A stretch of DNA of 64,000 nt from Escherichia coli (GTDB taxonomy: Bacteria; Pseudomonadota; Gammaproteobacteria; Enterobacterales; Enterobacteriaceae). Positions within the stretch are counted from its first letter, which is position 1; the number at the start of each line of letters is the position of its first letter. Below are positions 8,014 to 63,849 of this stretch, one piece after another. The notes under the pieces are model-generated. The model was not told the origin of the DNA and made no database searches. It worked only from the letters and a program-made list of their open reading frames with translations. A program made the translations under genes and the position numbers. The DNA is taken from assembly GCF_003018115.1 (NCBI RefSeq), contig NZ_CP027457.1; one strand, 5' to 3'.

Positions 8014-8124
8014 TGGTGGTTGTTATCCTGTGTATCTGGGTTATCAGCGAAAAGTATAAGGGGTAAACAAGGATAAAGTGTCACTCTTTAGCTAACCTTG
8101 CATCGCATTGACCAAAACTTGAAC

Positions 8125-8222: not shown

Positions 8223-8224
8223 AT

Positions 8225-8659: not shown

Positions 8660-8678
8660 ACAAAAAAGAGGTATGACG

Positions 8679-9062: not shown

Positions 9063-9093
9063 TTGAAAACGTGACAACGTCACTGAGGCAATC

Positions 9094-9312: not shown

Positions 9313-9368
9313 TTATTGTCAGGCTCTGATCACAGAGCCTGACATCTCCGTAATATCTTCCTGAAGTC

Positions 9369-12515
<3,147 letters not shown>

Positions 12516-12561
12516 TTAAGAGTGTAATAGTTTCCTCCAGCTAACGCACTGGAGGAAAAAT

Positions 12562-12879: not shown

Positions 12880-12900
12880 CTCCTTTCTGTGTGAATGGGA

Positions 12901-14223: not shown

Positions 14224-14336
14224 TTTTTATACCTGCTGTTCTGGATATTTATACATCCCAATAAAGCATGTATGCCATATCCATTTTATGATGTGTGAAA
14301 AGTTAGTTCAGGTAATAGTTTAATAATATTAGATTC

Positions 14337-14648
14337 TTACTCTTGCAGTAGTTTCATCGCAAATTCAAGAACTGCCTGTCCGTTCATGGTGCCATAGTCT
14401 TTCATCTCGATAACGGATACAGGCATTTTCCCCTGTGCAACGGCTTCAATCTCCGGTTTCTGAAAGCGAACTTGCGGGCCAAGTAAAACAACGTCAACTT
14501 CGTTATTTTTAATTTTCCCTTTAGCCTCTGCAATCGCCAATGCGGAAATATTAACTTCAAGTGAAATAGCGTTAGCATGATCAATCATACGTTTAACCAG
14601 CATACTGGTTGACATGCCCGCAGCGCAAACTAACAATATCTTTTTCAT
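14337..14648 (-). CDS. PTS EIIB component, lactose/cellobiose family
   Basis: 103-aa ORF with active-site Cys context (LLVCAAGMSTSMLV). Confidence 0.85.
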   Translation of the reverse strand: MKKILLVCAAGMSTSMLVKRMIDHANAISLEVNISALAIAEAKGKIKNNEVDVVLLGPQVRFQKPEIEAVAQGKMPVSVIEMKDYGTMNGQAVLEFAMKLLQE

Positions 14649-14846
14649 ATTTTCCCTTACTGGTATATAACAGACTACATTGTGTAAATATCATATCCCG
14701 CAGTAGCTATACATCCTGGTACATTGATCACAGTAATACAGTAATAAAGTTGTTCAACATCAGGGTGTTAATTAAACGACTCGGCCATACGATAAACCAA
14801 TCAGGACTCAACCCCTTGTTTTCAATGGCTCTTAAAAGGTGCAAAA

Positions 14847-15545
14847 GTGATTTTTCAAAAGATTGCCCGCTTACTTAAATCCGAGATCAATGGCTATTCA
14901 TGGCATGTTGGTGATTTGTTGCCATCAGAAGCTGAACTCGCAGTTCGTTATAATGTTTCGCGTAATACCCTGCGTAAGGCATTATCCTTGCTGGAAGGCG
15001 AAGGAATTATTCACAGAAAGCATGGTTCAGGAACATACATTCAAAAAAAGAATTTTGTTGCACACATTGATCACATGAACAGTTTCAGTGAAATTGCGCA
15101 TAAAAGCGGCAAAGAGGCAGGGAGTCAGATTATGAAATTTGAAGTGCAGGATGCTTCACCTACTATTGCGACTGAGCTGAATTTAGTAACTGGTGAGCAG
15201 GTTTATTACATAAAGAGACTGCGATTCATTGAGGATAATGCAGCACAATTAGAAGAAACGTGGATGTCAGTGGCACGTTTTCCTGATTTAACCGTAGCAC
15301 ATATGCAAAAATCCAAATTTTCGTATATTGAGAACGAATGCGGGATCAAAATCATTGGCACCTTTGAAACTTTCTCCCCTACTTTTCCTACCCCAGAAAT
15401 CGCCAGTATTTTACGGATCAGCCCACGGGATCCCATACTTAAAATTCAGACCCAGGCTGTGGACAGTAACTCTGTTCCGCTGGATTATTCGTTACTTTAC
15501 AGCAATATTTTCGAGTTCCAGGTAAAGTACTTTTTCCCGCGATAA
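14847..15545 (+). CDS. GntR/HutC-family transcriptional regulator, divergent from the PTS operon (GTG start in track)
   Basis: N-terminal GntR winged HTH (SEAELAVRYNVSRNTLRKALSLLEGEGII) plus UTRA-like C-terminal domain. Confidence 0.8.
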   Translation: MIFQKIARLLKSEINGYSWHVGDLLPSEAELAVRYNVSRNTLRKALSLLEGEGIIHRKHGSGTYIQKKNFVAHIDHMNSFSEIAHKSGKEAGSQIMKFEVQDASPTIATELNLVTGEQVYYIKRLRFIEDNAAQLEETWMSVARFPDLTVAHMQKSKFSYIENECGIKIIGTFETFSPTFPTPEIASILRISPRDPILKIQTQAVDSNSVPLDYSLLYSNIFEFQVKYFFPR

Positions 15546-15588
15546 AGCAGACGCACAGAGTGCTGACATCACATTCTGTGCGTATGGT

Positions 15589-16488
15589 TTAGCCTCTAAC
15601 CTTTACCGCTTTACGCCACCGCAAGCCAAATACATTGATATACAGCCCGGTCATAATGAGCACCGCACCGAAAAATTGCAGACCCGTTAAGCGTTCATCC
15701 AACAATAGTGCCGCACTTGCCAGTCCGACTACAGGCACCAGTAACGATAACGGTGCAACCCGCCAGGTTTCATAGCGTCCAAGTAGTGTTCCCCAGATCC
15801 CATAACCAACAATTGTCGCCACAAAAGCCAGATACATCAGAGACAAGATAGTGGTCATATCGATAGTGACCAGACTGTGAATCATGGTTGCGGAACCATC
15901 GAGAATCAGCGAGGCAACAAAGAAGGGAATGATTGGGATTAATGCGCTCCAGATTACCAGCGACATCACCGCCGGACGCGTTGCGTGCGACATGATCTTT
16001 TTATTGAAGATGTTGCCACACGCCCAACTAAATGCTGCCGCCAGGGTCAACATAAAGCCGAGCATCGCCACATGCTGACCGTTCAGACTATCTTCGATTA
16101 ACACCAGTACGCCAAAAATCGCTAAGGCGATCCCCGCCAATTGTTTGCCATGCAGTCGCTCCCCGAAAGTAAACGCGCCAAGCACGATAGTAAAAAACGC
16201 CTGTGCCTGTAACACCAGCGAAGCCAGTCCAGCAGGCATACCAAAATTAATGGCGCAGAACAGAAAGGCAAACTGCGCAAAACTGATGGTTAATCCATAC
16301 CCCAGCAGCAAATTCAGTGGTACTTTCGGTCGTGCGACAAAAAAGATGGCCGGAAAAGCGACCAGCATAAAGCGCAAACCGGCCAGCATCAGCGGTGGCA
16401 TGTTATGAAGCCCCACTTTGATGACCACAAAATTTAGCCCCCATACGACCACTACCAGTATCGCCAACACCCCATCTTTTCGCGACAT
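15589..16488 (-). CDS. eamA: Cysteine/O-acetylserine exporter (DMT family)
   Basis: MSRKDGVLAILVVVVWGLNFVVIKVGL... 299 aa from internal ATG of the 306-aa ORF; two EamA repeats. Confidence 0.9.
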   Translation of the reverse strand: MSRKDGVLAILVVVVWGLNFVVIKVGLHNMPPLMLAGLRFMLVAFPAIFFVARPKVPLNLLLGYGLTISFAQFAFLFCAINFGMPAGLASLVLQAQAFFTIVLGAFTFGERLHGKQLAGIALAIFGVLVLIEDSLNGQHVAMLGFMLTLAAAFSWACGNIFNKKIMSHATRPAVMSLVIWSALIPIIPFFVASLILDGSATMIHSLVTIDMTTILSLMYLAFVATIVGYGIWGTLLGRYETWRVAPLSLLVPVVGLASAALLLDERLTGLQFFGAVLIMTGLYINVFGLRWRKAVKVRG

Positions 16489-16682
16489 TCTACCGCCTCT
16501 GAATTTCATCTTTTGTAAGCAATCAACTTAGCCGAATTTACTTTTCTTTAACAGTTGATTCGTTAGTCGCCGGTTACGACGGCATTAATGCGCAAATAAG
16601 TCGCTATACTTCGGATTTTTGCCATGCTATTTCTTTACATCTCTAAAACAATACATAACGAAACGCACTGCCGGACAGACAA

Positions 16683-17870
16683 ATGAACTTATCCCTACGA
16701 CGCTCTACCAGCGCCCTTCTTGCCTCGTCGTTGTTATTAACCATCGGACGCGGCGCTACGCTGCCATTTATGACCATTTACTTGAGTCGCCAGTACAGCC
16801 TGAGTGTCGATCTAATCGGTTATGCGATGACAATTGCGCTCACTATTGGCGTCGTTTTTAGCCTCGGTTTTGGTATCCTGGCGGATAAGTTCGACAAGAA
16901 ACGCTATATGTTACTGGCAATTACCGCCTTCGCCAGCGGTTTTATTGCCATTCCTTTAGTGAATAACGTGACGCTGGTGGTGCTCTTTTTTGCCCTCATT
17001 AACTGCGCCTATTCCGTTTTTGCTACCGTGTTGAAAGCCTGGTTTGCCGACAATCTTTCGTCCACCAGCAAAACGAAAATCTTCTCAATCAACTACACCA
17101 TGCTCAACATTGGCTGGACCATCGGTCCGCCGCTCGGCACGCTGTTGGTGATGCAGAGCATCAATCTGCCCTTTTGGCTGGCAGCTATCTGTTCCGCGTT
17201 TCCCATGCTTTTCATTCAAATTTGGGTAAAGCGCAGCGAGAAAATCATCGCCACGGAAACAGGCAGTGTCTGGTCGCCGAAAGTTTTATTACAAGATAAA
17301 GCACTGTTGTGGTTTACCTGCTCTGGCTTTCTGGCTTCTTTTGTTAGTGGCGCATTTGCTTCATGCATCTCACAATATGTGATGGTGATTGCTGATGGGG
17401 ATTTTGCCGAAAAGGTGGTCGCGGTTGTTCTTCCGGTGAATGCTGCCATGGTGGTTACGTTGCAATATTCCGTGGGCCGCCGACTTAACCCGGCTAACAT
17501 CCGCGCGCTGATGACAGCAGGCACCCTCTGTTTCGTCATCGGTCTGGTCGGTTTTATTTTTTCCGGCAACAGCCTGCTATTGTGGGGTATGTCAGCTGCG
17601 GTATTTACTGTCGGTGAAATCATTTATGCGCCGGGCGAGTATATGTTGATTGACCATATTGCGCCGCCAGGAATGAAAGCCAGCTATTTTTCCGCCCAGT
17701 CATTAGGCTGGTTGGGCGCAGCGGTAAATCCATTAGTGAGTGGTGTTGTACTTACCACTCTCCCGTCGTCTTCGCTGTTTATCATTCTGGCGTTAGTCAT
17801 CATTGCCGCGTGGGCGCTGATGTTAAAAGGTATTAACGCCAGACCCCAGAGGCAACCAGCACTCTGTTGA
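16683..17870 (+). CDS. ydeE: MFS transporter YdeE
   Basis: 395-aa 12-TM MFS protein at the expected position after eamA. Confidence 0.9.
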   Translation: MNLSLRRSTSALLASSLLLTIGRGATLPFMTIYLSRQYSLSVDLIGYAMTIALTIGVVFSLGFGILADKFDKKRYMLLAITAFASGFIAIPLVNNVTLVVLFFALINCAYSVFATVLKAWFADNLSSTSKTKIFSINYTMLNIGWTIGPPLGTLLVMQSINLPFWLAAICSAFPMLFIQIWVKRSEKIIATETGSVWSPKVLLQDKALLWFTCSGFLASFVSGAFASCISQYVMVIADGDFAEKVVAVVLPVNAAMVVTLQYSVGRRLNPANIRALMTAGTLCFVIGLVGFIFSGNSLLLWGMSAAVFTVGEIIYAPGEYMLIDHIAPPGMKASYFSAQSLGWLGAAVNPLVSGVVLTTLPSSSLFIILALVIIAAWALMLKGINARPQRQPALC

Positions 17871-17910
17871 CGTTCGTGCCGTTCCACTACTGGCACGGCT
17901 TCGCTAATCA

Positions 17911-18306
17911 TTATTCTGAGGCAAAGGCATAGCCTTCATCTTCCCAGCCGGTTATCCCGCCGAGCATGATTTTAACCGGCTTTCCGAGTCGAGCCAGTTT
18001 GAGTGCCGCACGGTCTGCACCGTTACAATGTGGCCCCGCGCAATACACCACAAATAGCGTATCGTCGGGCCATTCGGCCATTCTTTCTGCGGTCATTTGC
18101 TTATGGGGTAAATGGAGAGCGCCTGGGATATGCCGACGCGCGAAGTCCTCTTCACGTCCAACCACATGAAGTAAAACGAAATCATCGCCAATATAAGCCA
18201 GAGAGTCATGAACATCGGCGCAATCTGTTTCGACACTCAAGCGCGCGAGAAAATGCGCCTCAGCAACTTCTGGCTTCGCTGTGGTAAATTCAGTGACATA
18301 ACGCAT
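17911..18306 (-). CDS. Single-domain rhodanese-like sulfurtransferase
   Basis: 131-aa ORF with rhodanese active-site loop context (VVYCAGPHCNGADRAA). Confidence 0.75.
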   Translation of the reverse strand: MRYVTEFTTAKPEVAEAHFLARLSVETDCADVHDSLAYIGDDFVLLHVVGREEDFARRHIPGALHLPHKQMTAERMAEWPDDTLFVVYCAGPHCNGADRAALKLARLGKPVKIMLGGITGWEDEGYAFASE

Positions 18307-18379
18307 ATTGCTTTGTCCTTTTGGTTTGTTGTGTTAACAATAATGTAACTAATCTACCTTTCACTGACCGCCTCTCGAT

Positions 18380-19372
18380 ATGCCAGAAATGAGCAAAATG
18401 ATGACAACGTTACAACGTCCGCTGGTCATTGCACTGGCATATGACGGGCTATGTACTTTTGAATTTGGCGTTGCCGTTGAAATATTCGGCCTGCCACGAC
18501 CGGAACTGGGCGATAACTGGTATCGTTTTGCTGTTGCTGCGGTAGAACCTGGTGCGCTACAAGCCACCGGGGGGATCCACGTGGTTGCAGATGGTGGACT
18601 GGAGTTATTGCCCAACGCCGATATGATTATTATTCCTGGCTGGCGCGGAATAGATGCCAAAGTGCCGGAGATGCTATGCCAGTCATTGCGCGAGGCACAC
18701 CAGCGCGGTACTCGCCTGGTATCAATATGCTCTGGCGTGTTTGTCCTTGCTGCTGCGGGCCTTCTTCATCAGCGAAAAGCAACCACCCACTGGCGCTACA
18801 CTGAACAACTCCAGCACCGTTACCCTTCAATCAGCGTAAGTGATAATGTGTTATATCAGGATGAAGGACAAGTGATGACCTCCGCCGGAAGCGCCGCGGG
18901 GATCGATCTGTGTTTACATATCGTGCGCAAAGATTTTGGTCATGAGATTGCTAATAATGTCGCCCGGCGACTGGTCATTCAGCCACATCGCCAGGGGGAT
19001 CAACCACAAAATCTGACGCGCCCAATGGCCTCACCGCGTGAAAGCCAGACGTTAGGTGCCTTATTCGACTTTTTGCAGCAGAATCTGGCACAAACACATA
19101 CTGTGTCTTCCCTCGCCGAACGGGTAAATATGAGTCCGCGCACTTTTTTAAGACGTTTTGAGGCGTTAACTGGCATGACGCCCGCCCGCTGGCTGCTCAA
19201 TGAGCGCTTAATACGAGTACAGGATTATCTGCAAAATTCGGTTTTTAACATCGAGAAAATTGCCGAGCTGACGGGTTTTGGCAATTCAGCGTTATTGCGT
19301 CATCACTTTCACCAACGTTTTTTATTATCTCCTTCGCAATATCGCAAAAACAGCCGTTCCCCATCACAATAA
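18380..19372 (+). CDS. AraC-family regulator with N-terminal DJ-1/PfpI (class I glutamine amidotransferase-like) domain
   Basis: N-terminal DJ-1/PfpI fold with nucleophile-elbow Cys (RLVSICSGVFVLAAAGLL); C-terminal AraC HTH (SLAERVNMSPRTFLRRFEALTGMTPARWL...). Exact start among several N-terminal Met uncertain. Confidence 0.75.
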   Translation: MPEMSKMMTTLQRPLVIALAYDGLCTFEFGVAVEIFGLPRPELGDNWYRFAVAAVEPGALQATGGIHVVADGGLELLPNADMIIIPGWRGIDAKVPEMLCQSLREAHQRGTRLVSICSGVFVLAAAGLLHQRKATTHWRYTEQLQHRYPSISVSDNVLYQDEGQVMTSAGSAAGIDLCLHIVRKDFGHEIANNVARRLVIQPHRQGDQPQNLTRPMASPRESQTLGALFDFLQQNLAQTHTVSSLAERVNMSPRTFLRRFEALTGMTPARWLLNERLIRVQDYLQNSVFNIEKIAELTGFGNSALLRHHFHQRFLLSPSQYRKNSRSPSQ

Positions 19373-19479
19373 TCGCCTGATTCAGCCTTTGTTTAGATAA
19401 CCTCTGCTAATATCTTTCTCATTGAGATAAAAATTAAGGTAAGCGAGGAAACACACCACACCATAAACGGAGGCAAATA

Positions 19480-22169: not shown

Positions 22170-24215
22170 TTATATGTTCAAGCCACGATGTTGCAGCATC
22201 GGCATAATCTGAGGTGCCTTACCGCGCCATTGTCGATACAGGCGTTCCAGATCTTCGCTGTTACCTCTGGAAAGGATCGCCTCGCGAAAACGCAGCCCAT
22301 TTTCACGCGTTAATCCGCCCTGCTCAACAAACCACTGATAACCATCATCGGCCAACATTTGCGTCCACAGATAAGCGTAATAACCTGCGGCATATCCGCC
22401 ACCAAAAATATGGGCGAAATAACTGCTGCGATAGCGTGGCGGTATAGCAGGAAGATCCATATTTTCCGCCACCAGCGCCCGCAATTCGAAATCATCGACA
22501 TCCTGCATTGCTTCGTTTTCTTCCAGGCAATGCCAGCGCATATCGAGAAGTGCGGCGCTAAGCAGTTCGCTCATCTCATACCCTTTGTTGAACAGGCTGG
22601 CATTACGCATTTTCTGTTGCAGTTCGTCAGGCATTGCTGCCCCGCTCTGATAATGCCGGGCGTAGCGAGCGAATACCTGCGGATGCGTTGCCCAGTGTTC
22701 GTTGATTTGCGAAGGAAATTCGACAAAATCACGCGGCGTGTTGGTACCGGAAAGCGTGGCATAACGCTGGCGGGCAAAAAGGCCGTGCAGTGTATGACCA
22801 AATTCATGGAATAAGGTTATGACATCATCCCAGAGTAACAACGCAGGCTCACCGGCAGCAGGTTTCTGATAATTGCAGACGTTATAAATTACCGGATGCG
22901 TTTCATTAAGCGTTGATTGCTCAACAAAATTGCCCATCCATGCACCGCCGCTTTTTGAATCACGGGCGAAGAAATCACCGTAAAATAACGCCAGCCCCAC
23001 GCCATTATGATCAAATATTTCCCACACACGAACGTCAGGATGGTAGACAGGAATATCAAAACGTTCGACAAACTTAATACCGAAGAGCTGATTCGCGGTC
23101 CAGAATACACCTTCATTCAACACCGTGTTTAATTCAAAATATGGCTTGAGCTGCGCCTCATCAAGATCAAATTTCTCCCGCCGGACCTGTTCGGCATAAA
23201 ATGCCCAGTCCCACGGCTGCGCGCTAAACCCGCCCTGCTGCTTATCGATAACCGCCTGTATGGAGGCTAATTCATCGCTCGCACGTTGACGCGCCGCTGG
23301 AACAATTTCCCGCATAAAGTTAAGTGCTGCTTCAGGTGTTTTTGCCATCTGATCGGCGATTTTCCATGCGGCATAATGAGGAAAACCGAGTAATGTAGCC
23401 TGTTGTGCACGGATCTCCACCAGACGTTGAATGATAGCGCGGGTATCATTGGCATCACTTTTTTCCGCTCGCGTCCAGCCCGCAATAAACAGTTGTTCTC
23501 GCGTCGCACGATCGCGCATTTCGGCAAGCGCCGGTTGTTGGGTGGTATTCAGCAGCGGAATCAGCCATTTGTTATCCAGACCTTTCTCGCGAGCCGCCTC
23601 TGCCGCCAGCGCAATCTCTTGCTCACTCATTCCTGCCAGCTGCGCGATATCGTTCACAACCAGACCGCCGGATTTATTTGCTGCCAGTAATCGCTGGTTA
23701 AACTGACTGGTCAGTGTCGCAGCTTCTGTATTCAGTACTTTTAATTTTGCTTTATCAGCTTGCGCAAGTTTGGCTCCGGCAAGGACAAAACGTTGATGAA
23801 TCACCTCCACCAGGCGGATGGATTCACTATCAAGCCCCAGAGATTCACGGCGTTGCCAGACAGCATCTACCCGCGCGAATAATTCACCGTTCAGATAGAT
23901 ATCATTAGCCAGTTCCGCCAGTTCAGCGGAAAACTGCTCGTCAAGACGCTGTAATTCATCATTGGTATGCGCCGCAGTCATCGCAAAAAAGACGCTGGTA
24001 ACGCGGGTAAGTAATTCTCCGCTTTGTTCCAGTGCCAGAATAGTATTGTTGAAATCAGGTGTTTGCGGGTTAAGCGCGATGGCAGCAATTTCTGCCCGCT
24101 TTTGCTGTATTCCCTCATCGAATGCCGGGCGATAGTGATGATTGGCAATTTGATCAAAATGAGGAGCCAGATACGGCAGTGTGCTTTGCACAAGGAAAGG
24201 ATTAATTGTTGTCAT
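22170..24215 (-). CDS. dcp: Dipeptidyl carboxypeptidase II (M3 family metallopeptidase)
   Basis: MTTINPFLVQSTLPYLAPHFDQI... 681 aa from internal ATG; HEFGH zinc motif present. Confidence 0.9.
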   Translation of the reverse strand: MTTINPFLVQSTLPYLAPHFDQIANHHYRPAFDEGIQQKRAEIAAIALNPQTPDFNNTILALEQSGELLTRVTSVFFAMTAAHTNDELQRLDEQFSAELAELANDIYLNGELFARVDAVWQRRESLGLDSESIRLVEVIHQRFVLAGAKLAQADKAKLKVLNTEAATLTSQFNQRLLAANKSGGLVVNDIAQLAGMSEQEIALAAEAAREKGLDNKWLIPLLNTTQQPALAEMRDRATREQLFIAGWTRAEKSDANDTRAIIQRLVEIRAQQATLLGFPHYAAWKIADQMAKTPEAALNFMREIVPAARQRASDELASIQAVIDKQQGGFSAQPWDWAFYAEQVRREKFDLDEAQLKPYFELNTVLNEGVFWTANQLFGIKFVERFDIPVYHPDVRVWEIFDHNGVGLALFYGDFFARDSKSGGAWMGNFVEQSTLNETHPVIYNVCNYQKPAAGEPALLLWDDVITLFHEFGHTLHGLFARQRYATLSGTNTPRDFVEFPSQINEHWATHPQVFARYARHYQSGAAMPDELQQKMRNASLFNKGYEMSELLSAALLDMRWHCLEENEAMQDVDDFELRALVAENMDLPAIPPRYRSSYFAHIFGGGYAAGYYAYLWTQMLADDGYQWFVEQGGLTRENGLRFREAILSRGNSEDLERLYRQWRGKAPQIMPMLQHRGLNI

Positions 24216-27838: not shown

Positions 27839-29122
27839 TTACAGACTTCTGGAAGGTTGCGCAGCTCTTACAACACGCGGTTGATCTTCCGCAGCGTCTT
27901 CCAGCGCACTTAAATCACGGTCTTTCACTTCTGGCATTTTCAGTGCAGAGATTAAACCAATCACTGAATATGCCATGATCATAATGGCGATTGGATACCA
28001 GGATTCCGTCATGGTGCAGAAAATACCTGCCAGGATAGGACCAAAACCGGAAGCGATAAGACCACCAATTTCTTTTGAAATAGCCATCCGGGTAAAGCGG
28101 TTTTTACAGCCGAACATTTCTGCCATGGTAATGTTTTCCAGAGCAAATAATCCCAGCACCGCACAGTTATGAATCACAATCAGTGCAACCATAATGGTGC
28201 TCGGGGCATAGCTTTTATCTACGATGATAGAAAGCATTGGCCACGCCAGCACAATCGCGGAGGTATTCATAATAATATACGGGATCCGGCGACCAATTTT
28301 ATCGGATAACCAACCAAGCAACGGAATGGTCATAAAGCCGAGAATCGAACTGATCATCAATGCATCTGTTGGAATTGCTTTGTTAAACAATAACGTCTGT
28401 ACTAAATAGCCTGCAAGGAAAGTCTGAATTAAACCGGAGTTACCCGCCTGACCAAAACGCAGCCCTGTTGCCAGCCAGAAGGATTTGCTCTGGAACATGC
28501 TACCAGCAGGTGCAGGTTTTGCTGTCGGTTGGTTGCTGTCATTAACCTTCTCAAAGACCGGGCTTTCTTTCAGATTCATACGCAACCAGATAGCAAAGAC
28601 CATCACGACAACGCTCGCCAGGAACGGTATACGCCATCCCCACGCCAGCAGTTCCTCTTTACTGAGAATGAAGAACATAAAGGCCCAGATTGCCGTTGCG
28701 CTTAAGGTTCCGCAGTTAGTTCCCATAGCCACAAATGAGGAGATAATTCCGCGCTTACCTTTTGGCGCATATTCCGCCAGCATCGTACCGGCACCGGAAA
28801 TTTCCGCACCTGCACCCAACCCCTGAATAATACGCAGCGTCACCAGCAAGATGGGGGCAAAAACACCAATCTGTGCATAGGTCGGTAACACACCAATTAA
28901 GGTGGTACAGATCCCCATCATGGTGATGGTAATAAAGAGCACTTTTTTACGCCCTATTCTGTCGCCCATTTTGCCGAAAATAAATGCTCCGACAATACGC
29001 GCCACATAACCTGCACCGTAGGTTCCCATTGCCAAAATTAACGCCATTGCCGTTGATGATTCAGGAAAAAATATTTCATGAAACACTAACGCTGCGCCGA
29101 GCGAATATAACTGGAAATCCAT
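27839..29122 (-). pseudogene. ydfJ: ydfJ MFS (metabolite:H+ symporter family) gene, 5'-truncated at the prophage junction
   Basis: Translation starts already inside the conserved TM1 region (DFQLYSLGAALVFHEIFFP... aligns to about residue 35 of ProP/ShiA-type transporters); sequence right of 29122 is AT-rich and unrelated. Confidence 0.8.
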
Positions 29123-29726
29123 AATTCACAGGTGTTTTTTCCCATCCTGTGGTTTCCTTGGCGTTTTCTAGGTTTTTTCAGATAGTTGCATTTTTTTAAA
29201 AAGCATCCTAAGTTCGATCTCAGTGTCTATCTGGGGCCTATTTCTGTCCCATATATGCCCCAAAAAAACTCCCCAACAGATAAGTAGTTTTTTCATGGAT
29301 TTATGCGTAAAATCAAGAACGGCTGGAAATCATTCAATACTCACACTATCGAAAAATTTACCAGCCAATCGCAGCACGTTCTTGCATAAGGCGTGTCTGC
29401 GGTTTTTCAACTATTCAGATACATCACTCCCATCACATTCATTCCTCCGCATCAAAGGCATATAGGCTATATCACCTTGATATTTTTCTTTTTCAGATAA
29501 AAACTGTTATCTATGTATACTTTTAAACCCAATCCGTGTAGAGTCTCTGCATAAGATAGTTTGCAGTTGCCGCTTCAGCTTGCGCCATAAACCGCCTGAT
29601 TTTTGCTGCCACCTGTTAGCATTCCTGTATACCTGAAACGACAATGTTTATCTACGAACTTTAAGAACACCCAAGATAAAAATTGTCAACTATATCATAT
29701 ATAACACATTACTAATTCGAGGCTAT

Positions 29727-47372: not shown

Positions 47373-48398
47373 TTACGCCAGTTGTACGGACACGAACTCA
47401 TCAGGGTCAGCCAGCAGCATCAGCGGTGCTGACTGAATCATGGTGAACTCACGCGCCGGATCGCCGGTGGTCACCCAGTTTTTCGGGTAACGGGCAGAGG
47501 CGTTAATGCCTTCGCGCTGTGCGTCCGCATCCTGAATGCAGCCATAGGTGCGCAGACCGCGTGCCTGAGTGTTCCCCAGCACCATCGTGTTGTCCGGCAG
47601 GAAGTTCTTTTTGACGCCGTTTTCCACGTACTGTCCGGAATACACGACGATGGCCACATCGCCATACATCCCCTTATAGGACACCGCTTTGCCCAGGTCT
47701 TTCACCGCTGTCTCCAGCTCGGAATGAGAGCCACGACGGGTATCCAGCTTCTCCTTGACGGCTTTGAAGGAACGGAACAGCGCCCAGCCTTTCGGATCGA
47801 ACACGATGATATTCACCACACCGCTGGCGTTCAGCGCGTAGGCTTCGATATCGTCGGTCGGGTCATACGTGGACTTGTCACGCTTGCTCCACTCCGTGCC
47901 GCCGGACTGCGTGATGTTATTCTCCTCACTGCGGCCCATATCCACCTCAACCGGATCGAAGGCTTCACCGGTCATGGTGTATTTGCCCTTAAGCACGGCA
48001 GAAACTGCCTGCATCTCTTCGACCTGAGCAATGGCCAGCTCTTCGTCACGCATGTTCTGCATGATGATGCGACGGCGGCGGTAAGCCGGGTCCGCCAGAT
48101 TCTGCGGATCTTCATCCGGCAGGCGACGCAGGGTCATCTGCGGATTCACTTCATGCTTCGGCTTGACATATCCCGGCGTAAATTCAGAGGTGGAGCCGCC
48201 ACGGGAACGGATAACCTCACCGGAAACAATCGGCGAAACGTACAGCGCCATGTTTACCAGTCCCGGAATTTGTGAGAGATAGACTTTCTCCGTGGTGAAG
48301 GGATAGCTCTCACGGAAAAAGAGACGCAGAAACAGCGGATCAAACTTAAATTTCTGCTCATTTGCCGCCAGCAGTTGGGCGGTTGTGTACATCGACAT
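47373..48398 (-). CDS. E: Major capsid protein E (HK97 fold)
   Basis: 341-aa ORF MSMYTTAQLLAANEQKFKFDPLFLRLFFRESYPF... Confidence 0.95.
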   Translation of the reverse strand: MSMYTTAQLLAANEQKFKFDPLFLRLFFRESYPFTTEKVYLSQIPGLVNMALYVSPIVSGEVIRSRGGSTSEFTPGYVKPKHEVNPQMTLRRLPDEDPQNLADPAYRRRRIIMQNMRDEELAIAQVEEMQAVSAVLKGKYTMTGEAFDPVEVDMGRSEENNITQSGGTEWSKRDKSTYDPTDDIEAYALNASGVVNIIVFDPKGWALFRSFKAVKEKLDTRRGSHSELETAVKDLGKAVSYKGMYGDVAIVVYSGQYVENGVKKNFLPDNTMVLGNTQARGLRTYGCIQDADAQREGINASARYPKNWVTTGDPAREFTMIQSAPLMLLADPDEFVSVQLA

Positions 48399-48454
48399 AA
48401 AAAAATCCCGTAAAAAAAAGCCGCACAGGCGGCCTTTAGTGATGAAGGGTAAAG

Positions 48455-48787
48455 TTAAACGATGCTGATTGCCGTTCCGGCAAACGCGGTCCGTTTTTTC
48501 GTCTCGTCGCTGGCAGCCTCCGGCCAGAGCACATCCTCATAACGGAACGTGCCGGACTTGTAGAACGTCAGCGTGGTGCTGGTCTGGTCAGCAGCAACCG
48601 CAAGAATGCCAACGGCAGCACCGTCGGTGGTGCCATCCCACGCAACCAGCTTACGGCTGGAGGTGTCCAGCATCAGCGGGGTCATTGCAGGCGCTTTCGC
48701 ACTCAATCCGCCGGGCGCGGTTGCGGTATGAGCCGGGTCACTGTTGCCCAGCGGCTGGTAATGGGTAAAGGTTTCTTTGCTCGTCAT
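48455..48787 (-). CDS. D: Capsid decoration protein D
   Basis: [12 protein letters not shown]...; 110 aa from internal ATG. Confidence 0.9.
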
Positions 48788-50116: not shown

Positions 50117-53797
<3,681 letters not shown>

Positions 53798-53823
<26 letters not shown>

Positions 53824-54343
53824 TCAGCAACCCCGGTATCAGTTCATCCAGCGCGGCTGCTTTGTTCATGGCTTTGATGATATCCCGTTTCAGGAAATCA
53901 ACATGTCGGTTTTCCAGTTCCGGAAAACGCCGCTGCACCGACAGGGGGATCCCGTCGAGAATACTGGCAATTTCACCTGCGATCCGCGACAGCACGAAAG
54001 TACAGAATGCGGTTTCCACCACTTCAGCGGAGTCTCTGGCATTTTTCAGCTCCTGTGCGTCGGCCTGCGCACGCGTAAGTCGATGGCGTTCGTACTCAAT
54101 AGTCCCTGGCTGGAGATCTGTCTCGCTGGCCTGCCGCAGTTCTTCAACTTCCCGGCGCAGCTTTTCGTTCTCAATTTCAGCATCCCTTTCGGCATACCAT
54201 CTTATAACGGCGGCAGAGTCATAAAGCACCTCATTACCCTTGCCACCGCCTCGCAGAACGGGCATTCCCTGTTCCTGCCAGTTCTGAATGGTACGGATAC
54301 TCGCACCGAAAATGTCAGCCAGCTGCTTTTTGTTGACTTCCAT
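53798..54343 (-). CDS. nu1: Terminase small subunit Nu1
   Basis: 181-aa ORF MEVNKKQLADIFGASIRTIQNWQEQGMPVLRGGGKG... with winged HTH. Confidence 0.95.
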
Positions 54344-54359
54344 TGTTCATTCCACGGCC

Positions 54360-54560
54360 AAAAACAGAGAAAGGAAACGACAGAGGCCCAAAAGCTCGTT
54401 TTCAGCACCTGTCGTTTCCTTTCTTTTCAGGGGGTATTTTAAATAAAAACATTAAGTTACGACGAAGAAGAACGGAAATGCCTTAAACCGGAAAATTTTC
54501 ATAAATAGCGAAAACCCGCGAGGTCGCCGCCCCGTAACCTGTCGGATCGCCGGAAAGGAC
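54360..54560 (-). other. cos: cos packaging site (cosB, cosN, cosQ); cosN 12-nt cohesive-end sequence at 54521-54532
   Basis: Plus strand reads ...CGCGAGGTCGCCGCCCCGTAACCTGTCGGATC...; reverse complement GGGCGGCGACCT is the lambda cohesive end, flanked by lambda-like left- and right-end sequence and CGTTTCC-type Nu1 sites. Confidence 0.85.
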
Positions 54561-54731
54561 CCGCAAAATGATAATAATTATCATCTGCATGTCACAACGT
54601 GCATCTACGCCATCAAACCACGTCAAATAATCAATTATGACGCAGGTATCATATTAATTGATCTGCATCAACTTAACGTAAAAACAACTTCAGACAATAC
54701 AAATCAGCGACACTGAATACGGGGCAACCTC

Positions 54732-54965
54732 ATGTCAACGAAGAACAGAACCCGCAGAACAACAACCCGCAACATCCGCTTTCCTAACCAAATGATTGAA
54801 CAAATTAACATCGCTCTTGAGCAAAAAGGGTCCGGGAATTTCTCAGCCTGGGTCATTGAAGCCTGCCGCCGGAGACTGTGCTCAGAAAAAAGAGTTTCTT
54901 CTGAAGCAAACAAAGAAAAGAGTGACATTACTGAATTGCTCAGAAAACAGGTCAGACCAGATTGA
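54732..54965 (+). CDS. ynfO: Small basic prophage protein YnfO (YlcI-like)
   Basis: 77-aa ORF MSTKNRTRRTTTRNIRFPNQMIEQINIALEQKG...; position between cos and ydfO. Confidence 0.7.
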   Translation: MSTKNRTRRTTTRNIRFPNQMIEQINIALEQKGSGNFSAWVIEACRRRLCSEKRVSSEANKEKSDITELLRKQVRPD

Positions 54966-55022
54966 AGCAATTTAGATAATCGTGCAGACTACGCCCCCTC
55001 ATATCACATGGAAGGTTTATCT

Positions 55023-55433
55023 ATGGATCAGGTAGTCATTTTTAAACAAATATTTGATAAAGTTCGAAACGATTTAAACTATCAATGGTTTTATTCTGAG
55101 CTAAAACGTCACAATGTCTCACATTACATTTACTATTTAGCCACAGAGAATGTTCATATTGTATTAAAAAATGATAATACAGTGTTATTAAAGGGCCTAA
55201 AAAACATTGTGTCTGTCAAATTTTCAAAGGATAGGCATCTTATAGAAACGACCTCTAATAAGCTGAAATCCAGAGAGATCACATTTCAGGAATACAGAAG
55301 AAACCTTGCTAAAGCAGGAGTTTTTCGGTGGGTTACAAATATCCACGAACAAAAAAGATATTACTATACCTTTGATAATTCATTACTATTTACTGAAAGC
55401 ATCCAGAAAACTACACAGATCTTACCACGCTAA
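55023..55433 (+). CDS. ydfO: DUF1398-family prophage protein YdfO (YbcV-like)
   Basis: 136 aa from ATG at 55023 (GAAGG RBS); an upstream in-frame ATG at 55008 has a poor RBS. Confidence 0.7.
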
Positions 55434-56431: not shown

Positions 56432-56644
56432 TCAAAGCGCCACTACATGAACAGCGGCAGGACCTTTAGGTCCGTTCTCAATACCAAATTCAACTTCCTG
56501 ATTCTCAGTTAATGTTTTGAAATCGTTGCTCTGAATTGCTGAGAAATGGACAAACACATCTTTGCTGCCATCTTTCGGCGTGATGAAACCAAAACCTTTT
56601 TCAGGGTTAAACCATTTCACTAAACCAGTCATTTTGTTAGACAT
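56432..56644 (-). CDS. cspI: Cold-shock protein (CspA family)
   Basis: 70-aa [41 protein letters not shown]... with RNP1/RNP2 motifs. Confidence 0.85.
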
Positions 56645-57006
56645 AATTATTACCTTTTGAAGAAATTAGCCCTTGGGCAGAATGGTCCGAAAAAAAATAT
56701 CAGAGAGAAAAACCAACAAGGAAATCTCAAGAGGTACAAATAATAAAATTATAACAATGACTGCTTCAGATAAATTTGTAACAAACCAGAACACCATTAA
56801 CGCATGATTAACCACCCATAGCAAGGATTACTTTTGTAAAGAAAAACACAGCAATGAAAGAATAGCTTTATTTATTAATAAAACGTGTCATTCTGATTAA
56901 GACCTTTTATCTTACCCTTAAGATTTCAGGAATTTTGGCTCATGGAAGAGTCCTTTTTATTTAAATTTTACATTCCGCGATGTAAATGTTCCGATTTAAT
57001 ATTACC

Positions 57007-58030
<1,024 letters not shown>

Positions 58031-58034
<4 letters not shown>

Positions 58035-58342
58035 AGATATTTATGATGAGGACGCTCGTGCTTATTGGCAGGATTTTCAATCTTAAAGGAGTACTGATGC
58101 TGCAGATAAGACTCAACTTTTTCTGACAATTTTTCTGCTACTTCCAGGAAGACTTGCCGGACGCTCCTTCTGGCTGCTGCCTCATAAAACTCCAGCGCAG
58201 CTCCTTCAACACGGTCCATGGCGACATCCAGGTCAAAAATTTCACCGTCAAAGCGTTCTTTGTCCTGTAAGGCTACAGTTACCGTAACTTTATTCTCAAA
58301 ATTACGGACTCCTTTCACAACCAGTTCATAGTCTTGAGTCAT
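58031..58342 (-). CDS. ydfR: DUF1327 protein YdfR, between holin and endolysin
   Basis: 103-aa ORF MTQDYELVVKGVRNFENKVTVTVALQDKERFDGEIFDLDV... Confidence 0.8.
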
Positions 58343-58346
58343 TGGA

Positions 58347-58562
58347 TTACTCTCCTCTCGCAGCCTTACGCCTGTCTTCTTTAATCTTGAAATAAAGATT
58401 TGTCAGATACGTCAGCAGGCCAAAAACCAGGCTACCCAGCACACCGATTGCAGCCCACTGTGACGGAGTTACTTTATCGAGTAACTGCAATGCCCAGAAA
58501 CCAGCATTACCCGCCGATGTGCCATAGGCAACACCTGTTGTTAACTTATCCATTGATTTCAT
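58347..58562 (-). CDS. essQ: Class II holin (phage 21 S-like pinholin) with dual-start motif
   Basis: [26 protein letters not shown]... 71 aa; two TM domains; Met-Lys-Ser-Met dual start. Confidence 0.85.
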
Positions 58563-58781
58563 ATCCTCACCCCGATGTACACGGATGGTGCAATATGTTT
58601 GAAAAGATCGGAGTCTACGGGGTAGTTTTGACAGCACACGTTGTTCTCAACGGCGCTAAAAAAACATACACATTAAAAATGTGGGTAATTATTTTGAAAG
58701 AAAGTCATATATAAAATAATAATACGAGAAATGTTTTCATATTTAGTGTACTGTATACGGCCATTTATACAGGAAAAGCCT

Positions 58782-58952
58782 ATGTCAGAACGTAAAAACT
58801 CAAAATCACGCCGTAATTATCTCGTTAAATGTTCCTGCCCAAACTGCACCCAAGAGTCAGAACACAGTTTTTCAAGAGTACAAAAAGGTGCCCTTTTGAT
58901 CTGCCCTCATTGCAACAAAGTATTCCAGACAAATCTTAAAGCTGTAGCCTGA
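58782..58952 (+). CDS. ynfU: 56-aa zinc-ribbon small protein (YnfU-like)
   Basis: MSERKNSKSRRNYLVKCSCPNCTQESEHSFSRVQKGALLICPHCNKVFQTNLKAVA; CxCPxC...CPxC four-Cys motif. Confidence 0.6.
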   Translation: MSERKNSKSRRNYLVKCSCPNCTQESEHSFSRVQKGALLICPHCNKVFQTNLKAVA

Positions 58953-59315
58953 TTGATTTTATTAGTAACAAGTATTTTTTATATTTTAATAATATATTTA
59001 AAGCAGATAATAAAAAACCCGCCTGAGCGGGTTTGAGATTGTGGTGCTTTTTGTGGGAGTCATCCACTTACGCACTTTGTTTTGCCATGCCAGCAGTTAG
59101 CTTCTGCTGTAAAACTATTCATGCAGCAAACCTGCACTTCACCACAATGGTTAGCATACTTTTCCTGATTAAGATTTTGCCAAATATGCTAGCCATTGTT
59201 TCATGTATTGGACCTCCTTACTTTTTATTAAAGAGATCCAATATTCACTACTCTGTCCGTATCTCTACTCAGGCATCAGCCTTCTTCGTTATCGTATACA
59301 GACGAGCGATGAATT

Positions 59316-59531
59316 TTAATCAGTAATGATGACATTTGCTGCTGCAGGACCTTTAGCACCACTCTCTATAGAGAAGGTAACCTTTTGACCTTCAAATAAG
59401 GTTCGATAATTATCATTCTGAATCGCAGAAAAATGCACAAACACATCTTTACTACCATCAACAGGAGAAATAAAGCCGAAACCTTTATCAGCGTTAAACC
59501 ATTTTACTAAACCAGTCATTTTATTTGACAT
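59316..59531 (-). CDS. cspB: Cold-shock protein (CspA family)
   Basis: 71-aa [41 protein letters not shown]... Confidence 0.85.
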
Positions 59532-59831
59532 TCTACATTCCTTAACTTGAGCCTTTCGGCATAAATGGTTTGCATAACAGAAACGACTTCGTACTTAATT
59601 GGAGAGACTCAAAGAAGGAATAAGTGAATAACACCTGAAATGAGAACTGCTTTAGTAAACTACTTCGTATATCGTCTGTTCTTCAAACCGACGCAATCAT
59701 TAACGCATAGTTGAACATATGAAGCAATGTTTATTTTAGACATCCAGCCATCTTCAACCCCATCAAAAAACTATAGCTTTCTTCAGGAACGTGTGTATAG
59801 TGCGCCAAGTTATCAGTATTAAGGAATTTTT

Positions 59832-60044
59832 TTGTCCCGTAAAATGACAGGAATTGTCAAAACCTTTGACGGCAAAAGCGGCAAGGGTCTTATCACCCCA
59901 TCCGATGGTCGTATCGATGTCCAGCTTCATGTTTCAGCGCTCAATCTCCGCGATGCAGAAGAAATTACCACCGGATTACGCGTGGAATTTTGCCGGATAA
60001 ATGGTCTGCGTGGCCCTTCAGCTGCCAATGTTTACCTTTCATGA
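59832..60044 (+). CDS. cspF: Cold-shock-like protein (CspA family, divergent)
   Basis: 70-aa [40 protein letters not shown]...[19 protein letters not shown]. Confidence 0.85.
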
Positions 60045-60098
60045 GCTATATTAAAGCTTTAATTTCAGGCCCCATCGGATCACACATGGAGAGTTTTT

Positions 60099-60188
60099 AT
60101 GAATAACCCCGTCTGTCTTGATGACTGGTTGATTGGCTTTAAAAGCTTATGCTGTACTTTGGCCGTAATAGCTCTGCTAATAATATAA
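60099..60188 (+). CDS. Candidate 29-aa small membrane protein downstream of cspF
   Basis: ATG with GGAGAG RBS 5 nt upstream; [29 protein letters not shown] has a hydrophobic C-terminal helix. No homology evidence. Confidence 0.35.
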
Positions 60189-60465
60189 TAAGCAGACTCA
60201 TTGTGTTTAGGGACATTGTACTGGAAGAAAACATTTTAAACATCAGGCAAATAACCAAGTCACCAGCTAAATAATAAGTTAACAGACATGAGTCCCGGGA
60301 TGAGATTCAACATTACCATTGCCCCATTTAAAGCACAAAACCCGCTCATCAGCGGGTTTTCTACTTTTTCTTAACGTCGGGTATACAAAGCCCATCGTTG
60401 AAAAAATTTTATCCATATTTTTTGAAAAATGCAAACATCATGTCGCCATCTTCAGCAAAAATCAT

Positions 60466-61218
60466 TTATCTCGTCACCTTCCTCAATTGCGCTTCCGCGT
60501 ATGCTTCTTCCTGCCAGCACTTTGTTACCAGTTTACCAATGACGTCCGCATACCCCTTATACCACTGATAATCGGTCAGGTCTGGTACCAGCTTCTGGAC
60601 ATGACGTCGTGCCAGCGTGGTCGGTAAACGACTAAACCGGTTTCCATTACAACGCCCACAAATCTTATATACCGGTACGCCATGAAACCGGGTTCTTTTT
60701 TCATCCAGAACAATCCCTTTACCCTTACACCCTCTGCACGCTGTGCTGGCTTCGCCCTTACCATGGCAATGCTGACATAGTTCCTTCACCCATTCTTCCT
60801 TGATTACAGATTCCCCGCGTCTGTAGTGTTTCACCACTTCGCGCAATACATTATAAAATCCCGTACCTGAACAATGCTCACAGCGAGCCTTACTTGCCGC
60901 AGACCTGGAGTAATCAGCAAAGGCAAAACTCACGAGGTAAGGAATAATCTGTAACCGGATTTCTTCACTCAATTTGTTCAATGTCGGGTTATCCAGTGCC
61001 ATCGCGTAATTTAGCAGGCCTTCAATCGCAAACTGAGGGTCCTGAACACCAACTTTTGCCAGAAATAAGGCCAACCCAAGTGGTGCTTTCGACTGCACCA
61101 TCCCCTGCGCTGCCATTACATCCGTAATTGTTAAACAACCGGTGCCTGTCGCTGGAGCGTCATCGCTCAATTTTGGAGATTTTGGGGAGTAATATTTTGG
61201 TAAGGCTTCAAGGTTCAT
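60466..61218 (-). CDS. quuQ: Late-gene antiterminator Q-like protein
   Basis: MNLEALPKYYSPKSPKLSDD... 250 aa from internal ATG; Cys-rich zinc-binding motifs (CEHCSGTG, CQHCHGKG, CRGCKGKG, CGRCNGN). Confidence 0.85.
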   Translation of the reverse strand: MNLEALPKYYSPKSPKLSDDAPATGTGCLTITDVMAAQGMVQSKAPLGLALFLAKVGVQDPQFAIEGLLNYAMALDNPTLNKLSEEIRLQIIPYLVSFAFADYSRSAASKARCEHCSGTGFYNVLREVVKHYRRGESVIKEEWVKELCQHCHGKGEASTACRGCKGKGIVLDEKRTRFHGVPVYKICGRCNGNRFSRLPTTLARRHVQKLVPDLTDYQWYKGYADVIGKLVTKCWQEEAYAEAQLRKVTR

Positions 61219-61231
61219 GCTCGTTCTCCAC

Positions 61232-62320
61232 TTACGCCAGTACGCCAATTGTCAGCGCGCGATCGATAAAACGAAATATCAGCTCCAGTTGGGAGCCATA
61301 CTTATCTTCAAATGCCACTGTATCCGTATGCAGCTCGTTGTGATGCTTTCTGCACAAAGGCAACACAAAGAGATCATGTGCTTTTGTTCCCATTCCGCCC
61401 TGCCCGTGACCAATCAGATGATGCGGATCGTCGGCTGGCATACCGCAGCAAGCACACGGCTGTGTCTTAACCCAACGTGTGTATTTCTCCTTAACCCAGC
61501 GGCGACGTTTAGGCAGCTTCATGAAAGATTCCGGAGACTCTGGATCAACGGTGATGCTTACCACCGTCTTTTCCTGTGGTGATTTTTGTTGCTGGTGGGC
61601 GTAAGGCAACGGTGCAAGATTTTTTGTGCGTTGTTTCAATATGCTGGTGGCGGTCTGCTCTCCCGGTACGATGTCGCTTTCGCGGTACACCGAGCAGATT
61701 TTTTCCGCTGGTAATCCCAGCGAACGACGCGATACAGCCTCAGGTAGTGCATCCACCACCTGATTGCAGACCGCCCACCAGGATAATTCAGCCAAAGATA
61801 ATTCCCGCTCCTGCGTACCGCTTATTGCGTGACGGATGACGTCAATCACCCATGCTGTCAGATTTTGTTGAGCAAGCAGCTCCAGTGATTCCGATGTCTG
61901 GTCACGCAGTTGGTTGTCGCAGTGCCAGCACAACACCATTGCGCCGGTACCATAACGGTGAATGACTGTTTCAGTGTGATGGTAATCGCCATTAGGCCAC
62001 TGGCAGGATGTAACATGACGTAATAGCCAGTCGGACAATGCGCCAACGCCGCCAGCAGCACGAATCACCCGTTCGTTACTAAAAAACGGCAGCAATGTTT
62101 TGTCTTCCGCCAGCGGCTGGCGAACGGCAGGAACGACTCCGGATGGCAGATTACGCATGCTTTTTGGTTCCGGTTCCACCAGCACTCGAGGATTATGAAA
62201 TATCTGTATGGATTCACGGCCCGGCTTAAGGACCACCAGCCCAAGCTCAGGCACCAGAACAGGTCTAAGTAATACCCGCACGTTACCTCCAGATCCGTTG
62301 CTGGAAAGTGCGGGACGCAC
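61232..62320 (-). CDS. ydfU: DUF968-family prophage protein YdfU; start uncertain (track start may be extended)
   Basis: 362-aa ORF with C-terminal Cys/His cluster (CACCGMPADDPHHLIGHGQGG...CRKHHNELH). Confidence 0.8.
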   Translation of the reverse strand: MRPALSSNGSGGNVRVLLRPVLVPELGLVVLKPGRESIQIFHNPRVLVEPEPKSMRNLPSGVVPAVRQPLAEDKTLLPFFSNERVIRAAGGVGALSDWLLRHVTSCQWPNGDYHHTETVIHRYGTGAMVLCWHCDNQLRDQTSESLELLAQQNLTAWVIDVIRHAISGTQERELSLAELSWWAVCNQVVDALPEAVSRRSLGLPAEKICSVYRESDIVPGEQTATSILKQRTKNLAPLPYAHQQQKSPQEKTVVSITVDPESPESFMKLPKRRRWVKEKYTRWVKTQPCACCGMPADDPHHLIGHGQGGMGTKAHDLFVLPLCRKHHNELHTDTVAFEDKYGSQLELIFRFIDRALTIGVLA

Positions 62321-62561
62321 GTGGTGGGCGTTCGGAATAAGGCAGCCTGACAGAGATTATCCAGTGCCGATAGTCGAGACTGAGAGCTTTCTTAACCTCG
62401 AACCCGCGCCTGCGGTAAGAATGAATCAGCCATTCGGCCTGTTCTGCAGTGCATGGAGGGTGCTGGAACCATTCAGACTTGAATGCGTGAGAATACCGCC
62501 CGTGCGTGCAGGCAAGAACGGGCGAATTATCAGAATTGTAATATTTTGCGTTGCGTGCCAT
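62283..62561 (-). CDS. Hypothetical 92-aa protein immediately upstream of ydfU
   Basis: ORF MARNAKYYNSDNSPVLACTHGRYSHAFKSEWFQHPPCTAEQAEWLIHSYRRRGFEVKK...; non-random composition; ends where the shorter ydfU start would lie. Confidence 0.4.
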   Translation of the reverse strand: MARNAKYYNSDNSPVLACTHGRYSHAFKSEWFQHPPCTAEQAEWLIHSYRRRGFEVKKALSLDYRHWIISVRLPYSERPPRASRTFQQRIWR

Positions 62562-62627
62562 CGGTTTTCTCCGGTGGCACGGTGTTACTCAGCGGGAGTT
62601 CAGCCCCGCGCAAGATTGTAGATGAGT

Positions 62628-62879
62628 TTATTCTCCTGAAAAAGCAGAAAAGCCAGCTTTTATTCCGATCTCTTTCAATGCCTGTAATGAAGTGACAAAC
62701 TCACCTTCGCGCAAGATAAATCCGTCCGTGACCCGAGCATCCACAAAATTAATTAACGCAGCCCCATTCTTTCGCAAACACATAATGCGGTAATGACTAA
62801 CAAGATTTCCATTTTCAACGCACACAGCATAGAGGCCATCTTCACAAAAAATTTTACGCAGTTCTTCGATGTTCATCAT
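62628..62879 (-). CDS. rem: Qin prophage protein Rem
   Basis: 83-aa ORF MMNIEELRKIFCEDGLYAVCVENGNLVSHYRIMCLRKNG... Confidence 0.8.
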   Translation of the reverse strand: MMNIEELRKIFCEDGLYAVCVENGNLVSHYRIMCLRKNGAALINFVDARVTDGFILREGEFVTSLQALKEIGIKAGFSAFSGE

Positions 62880-62997
62880 CAGAATCCTTCCGGATAATTA
62901 GCTCTCCCCTTTAAGGGACCATCCCTCTTATCCCTGCGCGCTACTTAAGTATTTTTGATTCTATTCCGGCACCGTCCAGAACTTCAAACGCGTTGAA

Positions 62998-63027
62998 AAT
63001 AAAAACAAAAACCCGCCGAAGCGGGTT
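62998..63027 (-). terminator. Rho-independent terminator downstream of hokD (end of relB-relE-hokD operon)
   Basis: Hairpin AACCCGC-TTCG-GCGGGTT followed by T-run on the minus strand. Confidence 0.55.
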
Positions 63028-63095
63028 AAGTGCGGGTGCGTTGAGGATGCCTGCCACATCAGAGGTGGCGAGGGATTTCTCCCCCGCCGGGTCTC

Positions 63096-63251
63096 TTACT
63101 CCTCAGGTTCGTAAGCTGTGAAGACAGCGACCTCCGTCTGGCCGGTTCGGATTCGTACCTCGCAGAGGTCTTTCCTCGTTACCAGTGCCGTCACTATGAC
63201 GGTTAAACAGATGACGATCAGGGCGATTAACATCGCCTTTTGCTGCTTCAT
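63096..63251 (-). CDS. hokD: Hok-family membrane toxin HokD (RelF), 51 aa
   Basis: Minus-strand translation MKQQKAMLIALIVICLTVIVTALVTRKDLCEVRIRTGQTEVAVFTAYEPEE; below ORF-track cutoff. Confidence 0.85.
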   Translation of the reverse strand: MKQQKAMLIALIVICLTVIVTALVTRKDLCEVRIRTGQTEVAVFTAYEPEE

Positions 63252-63322
63252 AGCCTGCTTCTCCTGTCAACGCAAAGCAGAAGTGTCACCTTCGGTGCGA
63301 AACAGAGATGTCATGCTTTGGT

Positions 63323-63610
63323 TCAGAGAATGCGTTTGACCGCCTCGCTATATACTTCCGAGCGTTCTCTTTTCCCAACAGAAATCACGAAAACGACAAC
63401 TTTCTCGTCTATAACCTGGTATACAAGGCGATAGCCTGAAGACCGGAGCTTAATCTTGTAACAATCAGGCATACCACGGAGCTTGTTTGCTTCAATCCGG
63501 GGTGACTCAAGTACTTCAACCAGCTTCTTTTTCAACTGTTCACGTACCGTCGAGCCCAGCTTTCGCCATTCCTTTAGTGCCCGCTCGTCAAAATCCAGAA
63601 AATACGCCAT
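63323..63610 (-). CDS. relE: RelE mRNA interferase toxin
   Basis: 95-aa ORF MAYFLDFDERALKEWRKLGSTVREQLKKKL... Confidence 0.95.
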   Translation of the reverse strand: MAYFLDFDERALKEWRKLGSTVREQLKKKLVEVLESPRIEANKLRGMPDCYKIKLRSSGYRLVYQVIDEKVVVFVISVGKRERSEVYSEAVKRIL

Positions 63611-63849
63611 CAGAGTTCATCCAGCGTCACACGTACTGGCTTAGGATTACGAAGCCGTTCTTTCACTATCTCCACAAGTTCAGCATCTTCATCACTCAGG
63701 AGTGTCTGTTTGAACGGCAAGCGTTCATTGTCAGCGATATACTCGAGCATGAGACGAAGCGCTTCAGAAGGAGTTACACCCATTTTTTCAAGCGCGGCGT
63801 AAGAACGCGCTTTAAGTTCATCGTCAATACGCAGGTTAATGCTACCCAT
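63610..63849 (-). CDS. relB: RelB antitoxin (RHH DNA-binding)
   Basis: 79-aa ORF MGSINLRIDDELKARSYAALEKMGVTPSEALRLMLEYIADNERLPF...; 1-nt overlap with relE. Confidence 0.95.
   Translation of the reverse strand: MGSINLRIDDELKARSYAALEKMGVTPSEALRLMLEYIADNERLPFKQTLLSDEDAELVEIVKERLRNPKPVRVTLDEL

Follow-up and report, generated by a model that had tools for sequence, protein, structure and literature searches.

The 64,000-nucleotide stretch of Escherichia coli DNA analysed here (the window) contains a genuine, ordinary lambda-type cos site; in Qin-family prophages this is the cos/nohA region, and it was known before. The feature is very probably the cos of a Qin-family lambdoid prophage that runs from about 29,114 to beyond 64,000 and is inverted relative to the lambda map. 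The whole site spans approximately 54368–54562, with its elements in the order cosQ, cosN, I2, R3, I1, R2 and R1; nu1 and A come next (Table 1). The right edge of 54560 given in a preliminary description of this DNA stops 2 bp inside cosQ (54556–54562).

For comparison with lambda, the joined ends of NC_001416 were taken as the reference and aligned to the reverse complement of the window. In this map lambda bp p corresponds to window 54533 − p, which is valid to bp 137, and a lambda coordinate q to the left of the nick corresponds to window 103035 − q. The 12-nt cohesive end of lambda, GGGCGGCGACCT, which the preliminary description had reported, has a single exact match in the 64-kb window, at 54521–54532 of the minus strand. 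A chance resemblance has to be considered here, since a lone 12-mer is weak evidence; with up to one mismatch, 0.24 matches to GGGCGGCGACCT are expected by chance in the window. The longer pattern, which spans cosQ to the left half of cosN, likewise has one match in the window, against an expectation of 0. What also argues against chance is the identity around cos, some 96% to lambda over about 600 bp and 100% to the deposited phage PhiR42_1 over 601 bp. The R core CRTTTCCKTTCT points the same way. It has three matches in the entire window, all of them at cos, namely in R3 (minus strand, 54469–54480), R2 (plus strand, 54413–54424) and R1 (minus strand, 54368–54379), where 0.03 would be expected.

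Table 1. Elements of the cos site and the adjoining terminase genes (window coordinates; identities are relative to lambda)
Element	Position	Strand	Remarks
cosQ, GGGTCCT, packaging-termination signal	54556..54562	-	Same as lambda 48473-48479
cosN, 16-bp nicking site	54519..54534	-	Exact single match; CG flanks the cohesive end GGGCGGCGACCT (54521-54532) on both sides
I2 (lambda bp 18-50, critical bp 30-35 included)	54483..54515	-	100% lambda-identical
R3 (lambda bp 50-65), primary Nu1/TerS site by homology	54468..54483	-	Natural variant G54A at 54479
I1 region (lambda bp 66-108), R3-R2 spacer, IHF-bent by homology	54425..54467	-	Two substitutions, A73G and T102C
R2 (lambda bp 109-124), Nu1 site by homology, inverted relative to R3 and R1	54409..54424	+	Same as lambda
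R1 (lambda bp 151-166), accessory Nu1 site by homology	54368..54383	-	Same as lambda
nu1 (nohA homologue), small subunit of terminase (181 aa)	53798..54343	-	178/181 residues as in lambda Nu1
A, large subunit of terminase (641 aa), intact	51898..53823	-	637/641 identical to lambda gpA (99%)

From lambda 48487 through the nick to bp 53 the alignment has no mismatch. To the right of the cohesive end all 41 bp of lambda 13–53 are the same in the window, and to the left of the nick 16 bp are the same before the substitution T48486C. The preliminary claim that about 40 bp on each side match lambda is therefore correct on the right (41/41) and not on the left, where 37 of the 40 bp match and the differences lie at 48467, 48471 and 48486. 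The interval 54344–54560 had also been called lambda-identical. This is exact for cosN and I2; elsewhere the identity is about 96%, and the interval carries eight differences (T48486C, G54A, A73G, T102C, G134A, loss of G138, T145G and T176G), four of which (134, 138, 145 and 176) are located between R2 and nu1. For the most part the differences are alleles that natural relatives of lambda commonly carry. The alignment to the lambda termini that had been proposed as a check reveals no mismatch in cosN and no missing R repeat.

Lambda's cosN adds two flanking base pairs at either end of the 12 bp, and 10 of the resulting 16 bp are symmetric; the left half of the 12-nt 5′ cohesive end is a conserved feature of this type of site (PMC9026076). 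The window cosN agrees with this description in having 10 of 16 bp in two-fold symmetry, and cosN is constant across all 12 of the relatives aligned. By homology, the nicks would fall at 54533|54532 on the minus strand and at 54521|54520 on the plus strand.

We take the 7 bp of cosQ to lie at lambda 48473–48479, and the 7-bp definition is said to come from Wieczorek and Feiss (2001). The block CGGGTCCTTTCCGG, which contains cosQ, is constant across N15 and 12 lambdoid cos sites, and in the IMG/VR loci conservation starts exactly at the left edge of CGGGTCCTTTCCGG/cosQ. This agrees with cosQ being 7 bp long and highly conserved (PMC4669245). I2 is an essential element of bp 18–50 with a critical segment at bp 30–35 (PMC4856287). 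No indel occurs over bp 13–53, and the spacing from cosN to R3 (cosB) is exactly that of lambda. The order and orientation R3-I1-R2(inverted)-R1 are likewise common to lambda and the window, with R3, R2 and R1 on the minus, plus and minus strands at the lambda positions, which is the arrangement of a complex cosB. The Nu1-binding repeats that had been noted between cosN and nu1 thus comprise all three R sites. The I1 region is a putative one, assigned by homology only; a scan for the IHF consensus WATCAANNNNTTR with up to two mismatches returned 600 matches in the window versus 598 expected, and has no discriminating power.

The substitutions in R3 and I1 raise the question whether G54A, with A73G and T102C, lowers the binding of Nu1 or IHF, such that the site is weakened or IHF-dependent and packaging is inefficient compared with lambda. 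G54 is conserved across the R3, R2 and R1 cores of lambda (CGTTTCC) and sits directly beside the contact segment at bp 55–63, and the nearby change of R3 bp 58 from C to T renders lambda IHF-dependent (PMC4669245). However, bp 54 itself is outside that segment and is not one of bp 56, 58 and 59 (PMC9026076). The segment was defined as the TerS contact by NMR, and the three positions are the functional ones (PMC9026076, PMC4669245); bp 55–63, including bp 56, 58 and 59, are the same as in lambda, bp 54 being the sole difference in R3. A54 is also found in PhiR42_1, in the Qin prophages of K-12 and W5-6, and in 19 of 120 IMG/VR loci, that is, in about 16% of the lambda-type cos sites sampled. 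As for the other changes, G73 and C102, as well as C at 48486, are the majority alleles among the relatives, with lambda as the outlier. A weakened cos is thus quite improbable.

The two genes adjoining the site are those of a lambda-type terminase. Nu1 differs from its lambda counterpart by three changes, K48R, A75T and L132I, and its residues 1–47 are lambda-identical, including the recognition helix (17–24) and the wing (31–39). Nu1 and gpA of PhiR42_1 are each 100% identical to the window proteins. The nu1 gene starts at bp 190 in the window versus 191 in lambda. A small-subunit gene with a winged helix-turn-helix therefore adjoins cos and the large subunit is intact, as in lambda, and packaging specificity is predicted to be of the lambda type. 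Phage 21 specificity depends on 21-type R sequences and on residues 20 and 24 of the TerS recognition helix (PMC4669245). The Nu1 helix being the same as lambda's, it implies a probable specificity of lambda rather than phage 21.

Several known cos arrangements were compared with that of the window. Across the lambda site (NC_001416, bp 48473–48502 joined to 1–166), a complex cosB, the window has the same cosQ, cosN, I2, R2 and R1. The eight point differences from cosQ to nu1 and the three Nu1 residues distinguish the two. The same architecture is seen in DLP12 (ylcI-nohD), PhiR49_1, Kati, 2H10, PhiR26_1, PhiR29_1 and mEp332, in all of which cosQ, cosN, I2, R2 and R1 are invariant. These lambda relatives carry C53T or G54 in R3, not the A54 of the window, and a few private substitutions. 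N15 shares the cosQ GGGTCCT and has a simple cosB with one R site and a TerS start at bp 89, against three R sites and a nu1 start at bp 190 in the window; a simple cosB of the N15 type was rejected on these two grounds. In a phage-inducible chromosomal island (PICI), which has no morphogenesis genes, rpp adjoins cos (PMC9026076). In the window, Nu1, then gpA and a full head-tail module adjoin it, and no rpp is found. Both a chance match and a PICI cos are refuted by the alignments, the R-core count and the presence of the terminase and head-tail genes.

The prophage that carries this cos belongs to the same family as PhiR42_1 (PV340562.1) and the Qin prophage of K-12 (ynfO-nohA, b4533–b1548). 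Window 29359–64000 aligns with PhiR42_1 at about 98.5% identity, and 32090–64000 is collinear with it. The 42 genes compared run from relB, relE and Q by way of the lysis, head, tail and tail fibre genes to pin, and all are full-length and without stops. The visible part of the prophage, 35 kb, contains no IS element and no broken gene. The early region (int, repressor and replication) falls beyond position 64000, and statements on the prophage cover the part within the window. RefSeq annotation of E. coli genomes gives this locus the names ynfO/nohA; it is the Qin prophage, beside ydfJ, and the ydfJ side, pinQ, tfaQ, cspI, gnsB, ydfO and ynfO form a neighbourhood common to Qin and the window. 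The window prophage is related to the cryptic Qin of K-12 (nohA/ynfO locus) and is undeleted.

The right junction between prophage and host lies at about 29114–29359. Similarity to PhiR42_1 stops at about 29114, and beyond the junction, toward lower coordinates, are host genes of the ydfJ-ydfI-dcp region. Parts of window 1–19380 are not collinear with strain W5-6. Just left of cos and on the opposite (plus) strand are ynfO (DUF3950, YlcI/YnfO family) at 54732–54965 and then ydfO (DUF1398) at 55008–55433; an unannotated stretch of lambda, about 48150–48303, has the same nucleotides as the 5′ two-thirds of the ynfO ORF. Qin-typical cargo occupies 56435–63849 in the late region of the prophage, comprising the cold-shock paralogues cspI, cspB and cspF, gnsB, and the toxin-antitoxin modules relBE and hokD. 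The cargo proteins are 100% identical to their PhiR42_1 counterparts.

From its GenBank record (host ECOR13, "complete genome") we infer that PhiR42_1 is a plaque-forming isolate. The paper describing it is probably that of Brenes and Laub in 2025. The record has a direct terminal repeat of 781 bp (3–783 and 47888–48668, 99.6% identity). Its annotation also lists, at 23405–23548, a 47-residue "hypothetical protein" across cosN, which is probably a spurious ORF call.

A block of about 21 kb that is intact in the window, starting within the nu1/A junction and reaching to stf, is missing from the K-12 Qin. The deletion junction of the K-12 Qin corresponds to window 32677|53815, and that of the Qin of W5-6 to window 32485|52774. 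The two prophages thus have differing internal deletions, and both keep cos and nohA. To the right of cosN the K-12 Qin is the same as the window, and to the left it has lambda alleles at 11 positions.

The retention of cos and nohA in these cryptic, deleted prophages means that the site could be a sequence-intact relic, that is, a cos unused by its own phage in a prophage made defective by lesions outside the window, a remnant like K-12 Qin. Strain F41, 99.9% identical over the 24-kb morphogenesis block, has IS66, IS3 and ISNCY elements and a truncated gene in the early region, and it is the early region that falls outside the window. On the other hand, the 35 kb visible here are collinear with PhiR42_1 and have neither an IS element nor a broken gene, and relE, which is interrupted in F41, is intact in the window. 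We regard a relic as unlikely; moreover, even the cos of a defective prophage would stay a competent substrate for the terminase of a helper. The cos of the window marks a relative of the cryptic K-12 Qin that is undeleted and can probably still be packaged.

The sequence anatomy of the site and its intact terminase genes are direct observations, and by homology with lambda we infer cleavage at cos. In the lambda scheme, gpA positioned at cosN would make staggered nicks 12 nt apart. The Nu1-proximal end would then be threaded into proheads, from 54,520 toward lower coordinates, via the head and tail genes. The terminal cut would be made at the next cos on the concatemer, set off by cosQ and cosN (PMC4669245). 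The preliminary description took the site to imply a functional terminase substrate. At the sequence level this is upheld by the presence of all the defined subsites, the exact cosN-to-R3 spacing and the unchanged R3 contact base pairs, which support a site that would be competent as a lambda-type terminase substrate.

It was further proposed that a superinfecting lambda-type phage could use this packaging region. The subsites are complete, the R3 contacts and the Nu1 helix and wing are those of lambda, and PhiR42_1 has the same site; a superinfecting phage of lambda specificity should therefore be able to recognise it, and its terminase should nick it. Recognition, however, is the part of the proposal that holds, and packaged particles from the single integrated cos are not expected. 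Terminases of the cos type depend on a second cos to make the terminal cut (PMC6687093, PMC4669245), and pattern searches of the window for a further cosN or cosQ-cosN found none over the 54.5 kb that lie downstream as packaging proceeds. Since termination needs a second cos and none is within 54.5 kb, no finished particles can come from one integrated cos. For productive packaging, excision and concatemers, or tandem prophages, would thus be needed. In situ cos-to-cos packaging of downstream host DNA was rejected because of the absence of a second cosN or cosQ-cosN from those 54.5 kb. The prophage DNA, either excised or in tandem, could be packaged by a co-resident or superinfecting phage of lambda specificity, and the reverse could also occur.

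The cos of the K-12 Qin (NC_000913.3, about 1,636,370–1,636,760) is a mosaic. It is lambda-identical from 48167 to the nick, while to the right of cosN, over bp 1–560, it is identical to the Qin type of the window. Over window 54344–54900 the two Qin sequences have only 11 differences, all 16–118 bp left of the nick. The breakpoint of the mosaic at cosN (lambda 48486 to bp 54) suggests that lambda and Qin exchanged sequence at cos in the K-12 lineage.

Homologues of the cos region are found in 4632 of 5426 complete E. coli genomes, at a median of two places per genome, and 1220 genomes contain at least 80% of the 24-kb morphogenesis block next to it. The site brings no new insight into cos sites, and its practical value is small. 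It may be of use in annotation, as cos is unannotated in RefSeq E. coli genomes, and R3 bp 54 may serve as a data point of natural variation.

The allele at R3 bp 54 (54479) was compared with Nu1 codon 48 (54200) in the 120 IMG/VR loci. CA occurs with Arg48 in 15 loci and with Lys48 in four, and CG or TG occurs with Arg48 in 13 and with Lys48 in 88. A54 and Arg48 are thus strongly associated (odds ratio about 25). It is nevertheless highly improbable that this Qin-lineage pair of alleles goes beyond linkage and is a micro-variant of lambda packaging recognition whose parts have co-adapted. Each of the four combinations is found, and only about 280 bp separate the two sites, which makes hitch-hiking far likelier than co-adaptation; with recombinant haplotypes present, covariation of R3 A54 and Nu1 Arg48 was rejected.

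Three IMG/VR viral contigs have a lambda-type cosN, I2 and R3, with unrelated sequence immediately to the left of the nick and no GGGTCCT cosQ. In other IMG/VR loci, variation is confined to bp 7–12 of the cohesive end, matching the literature.
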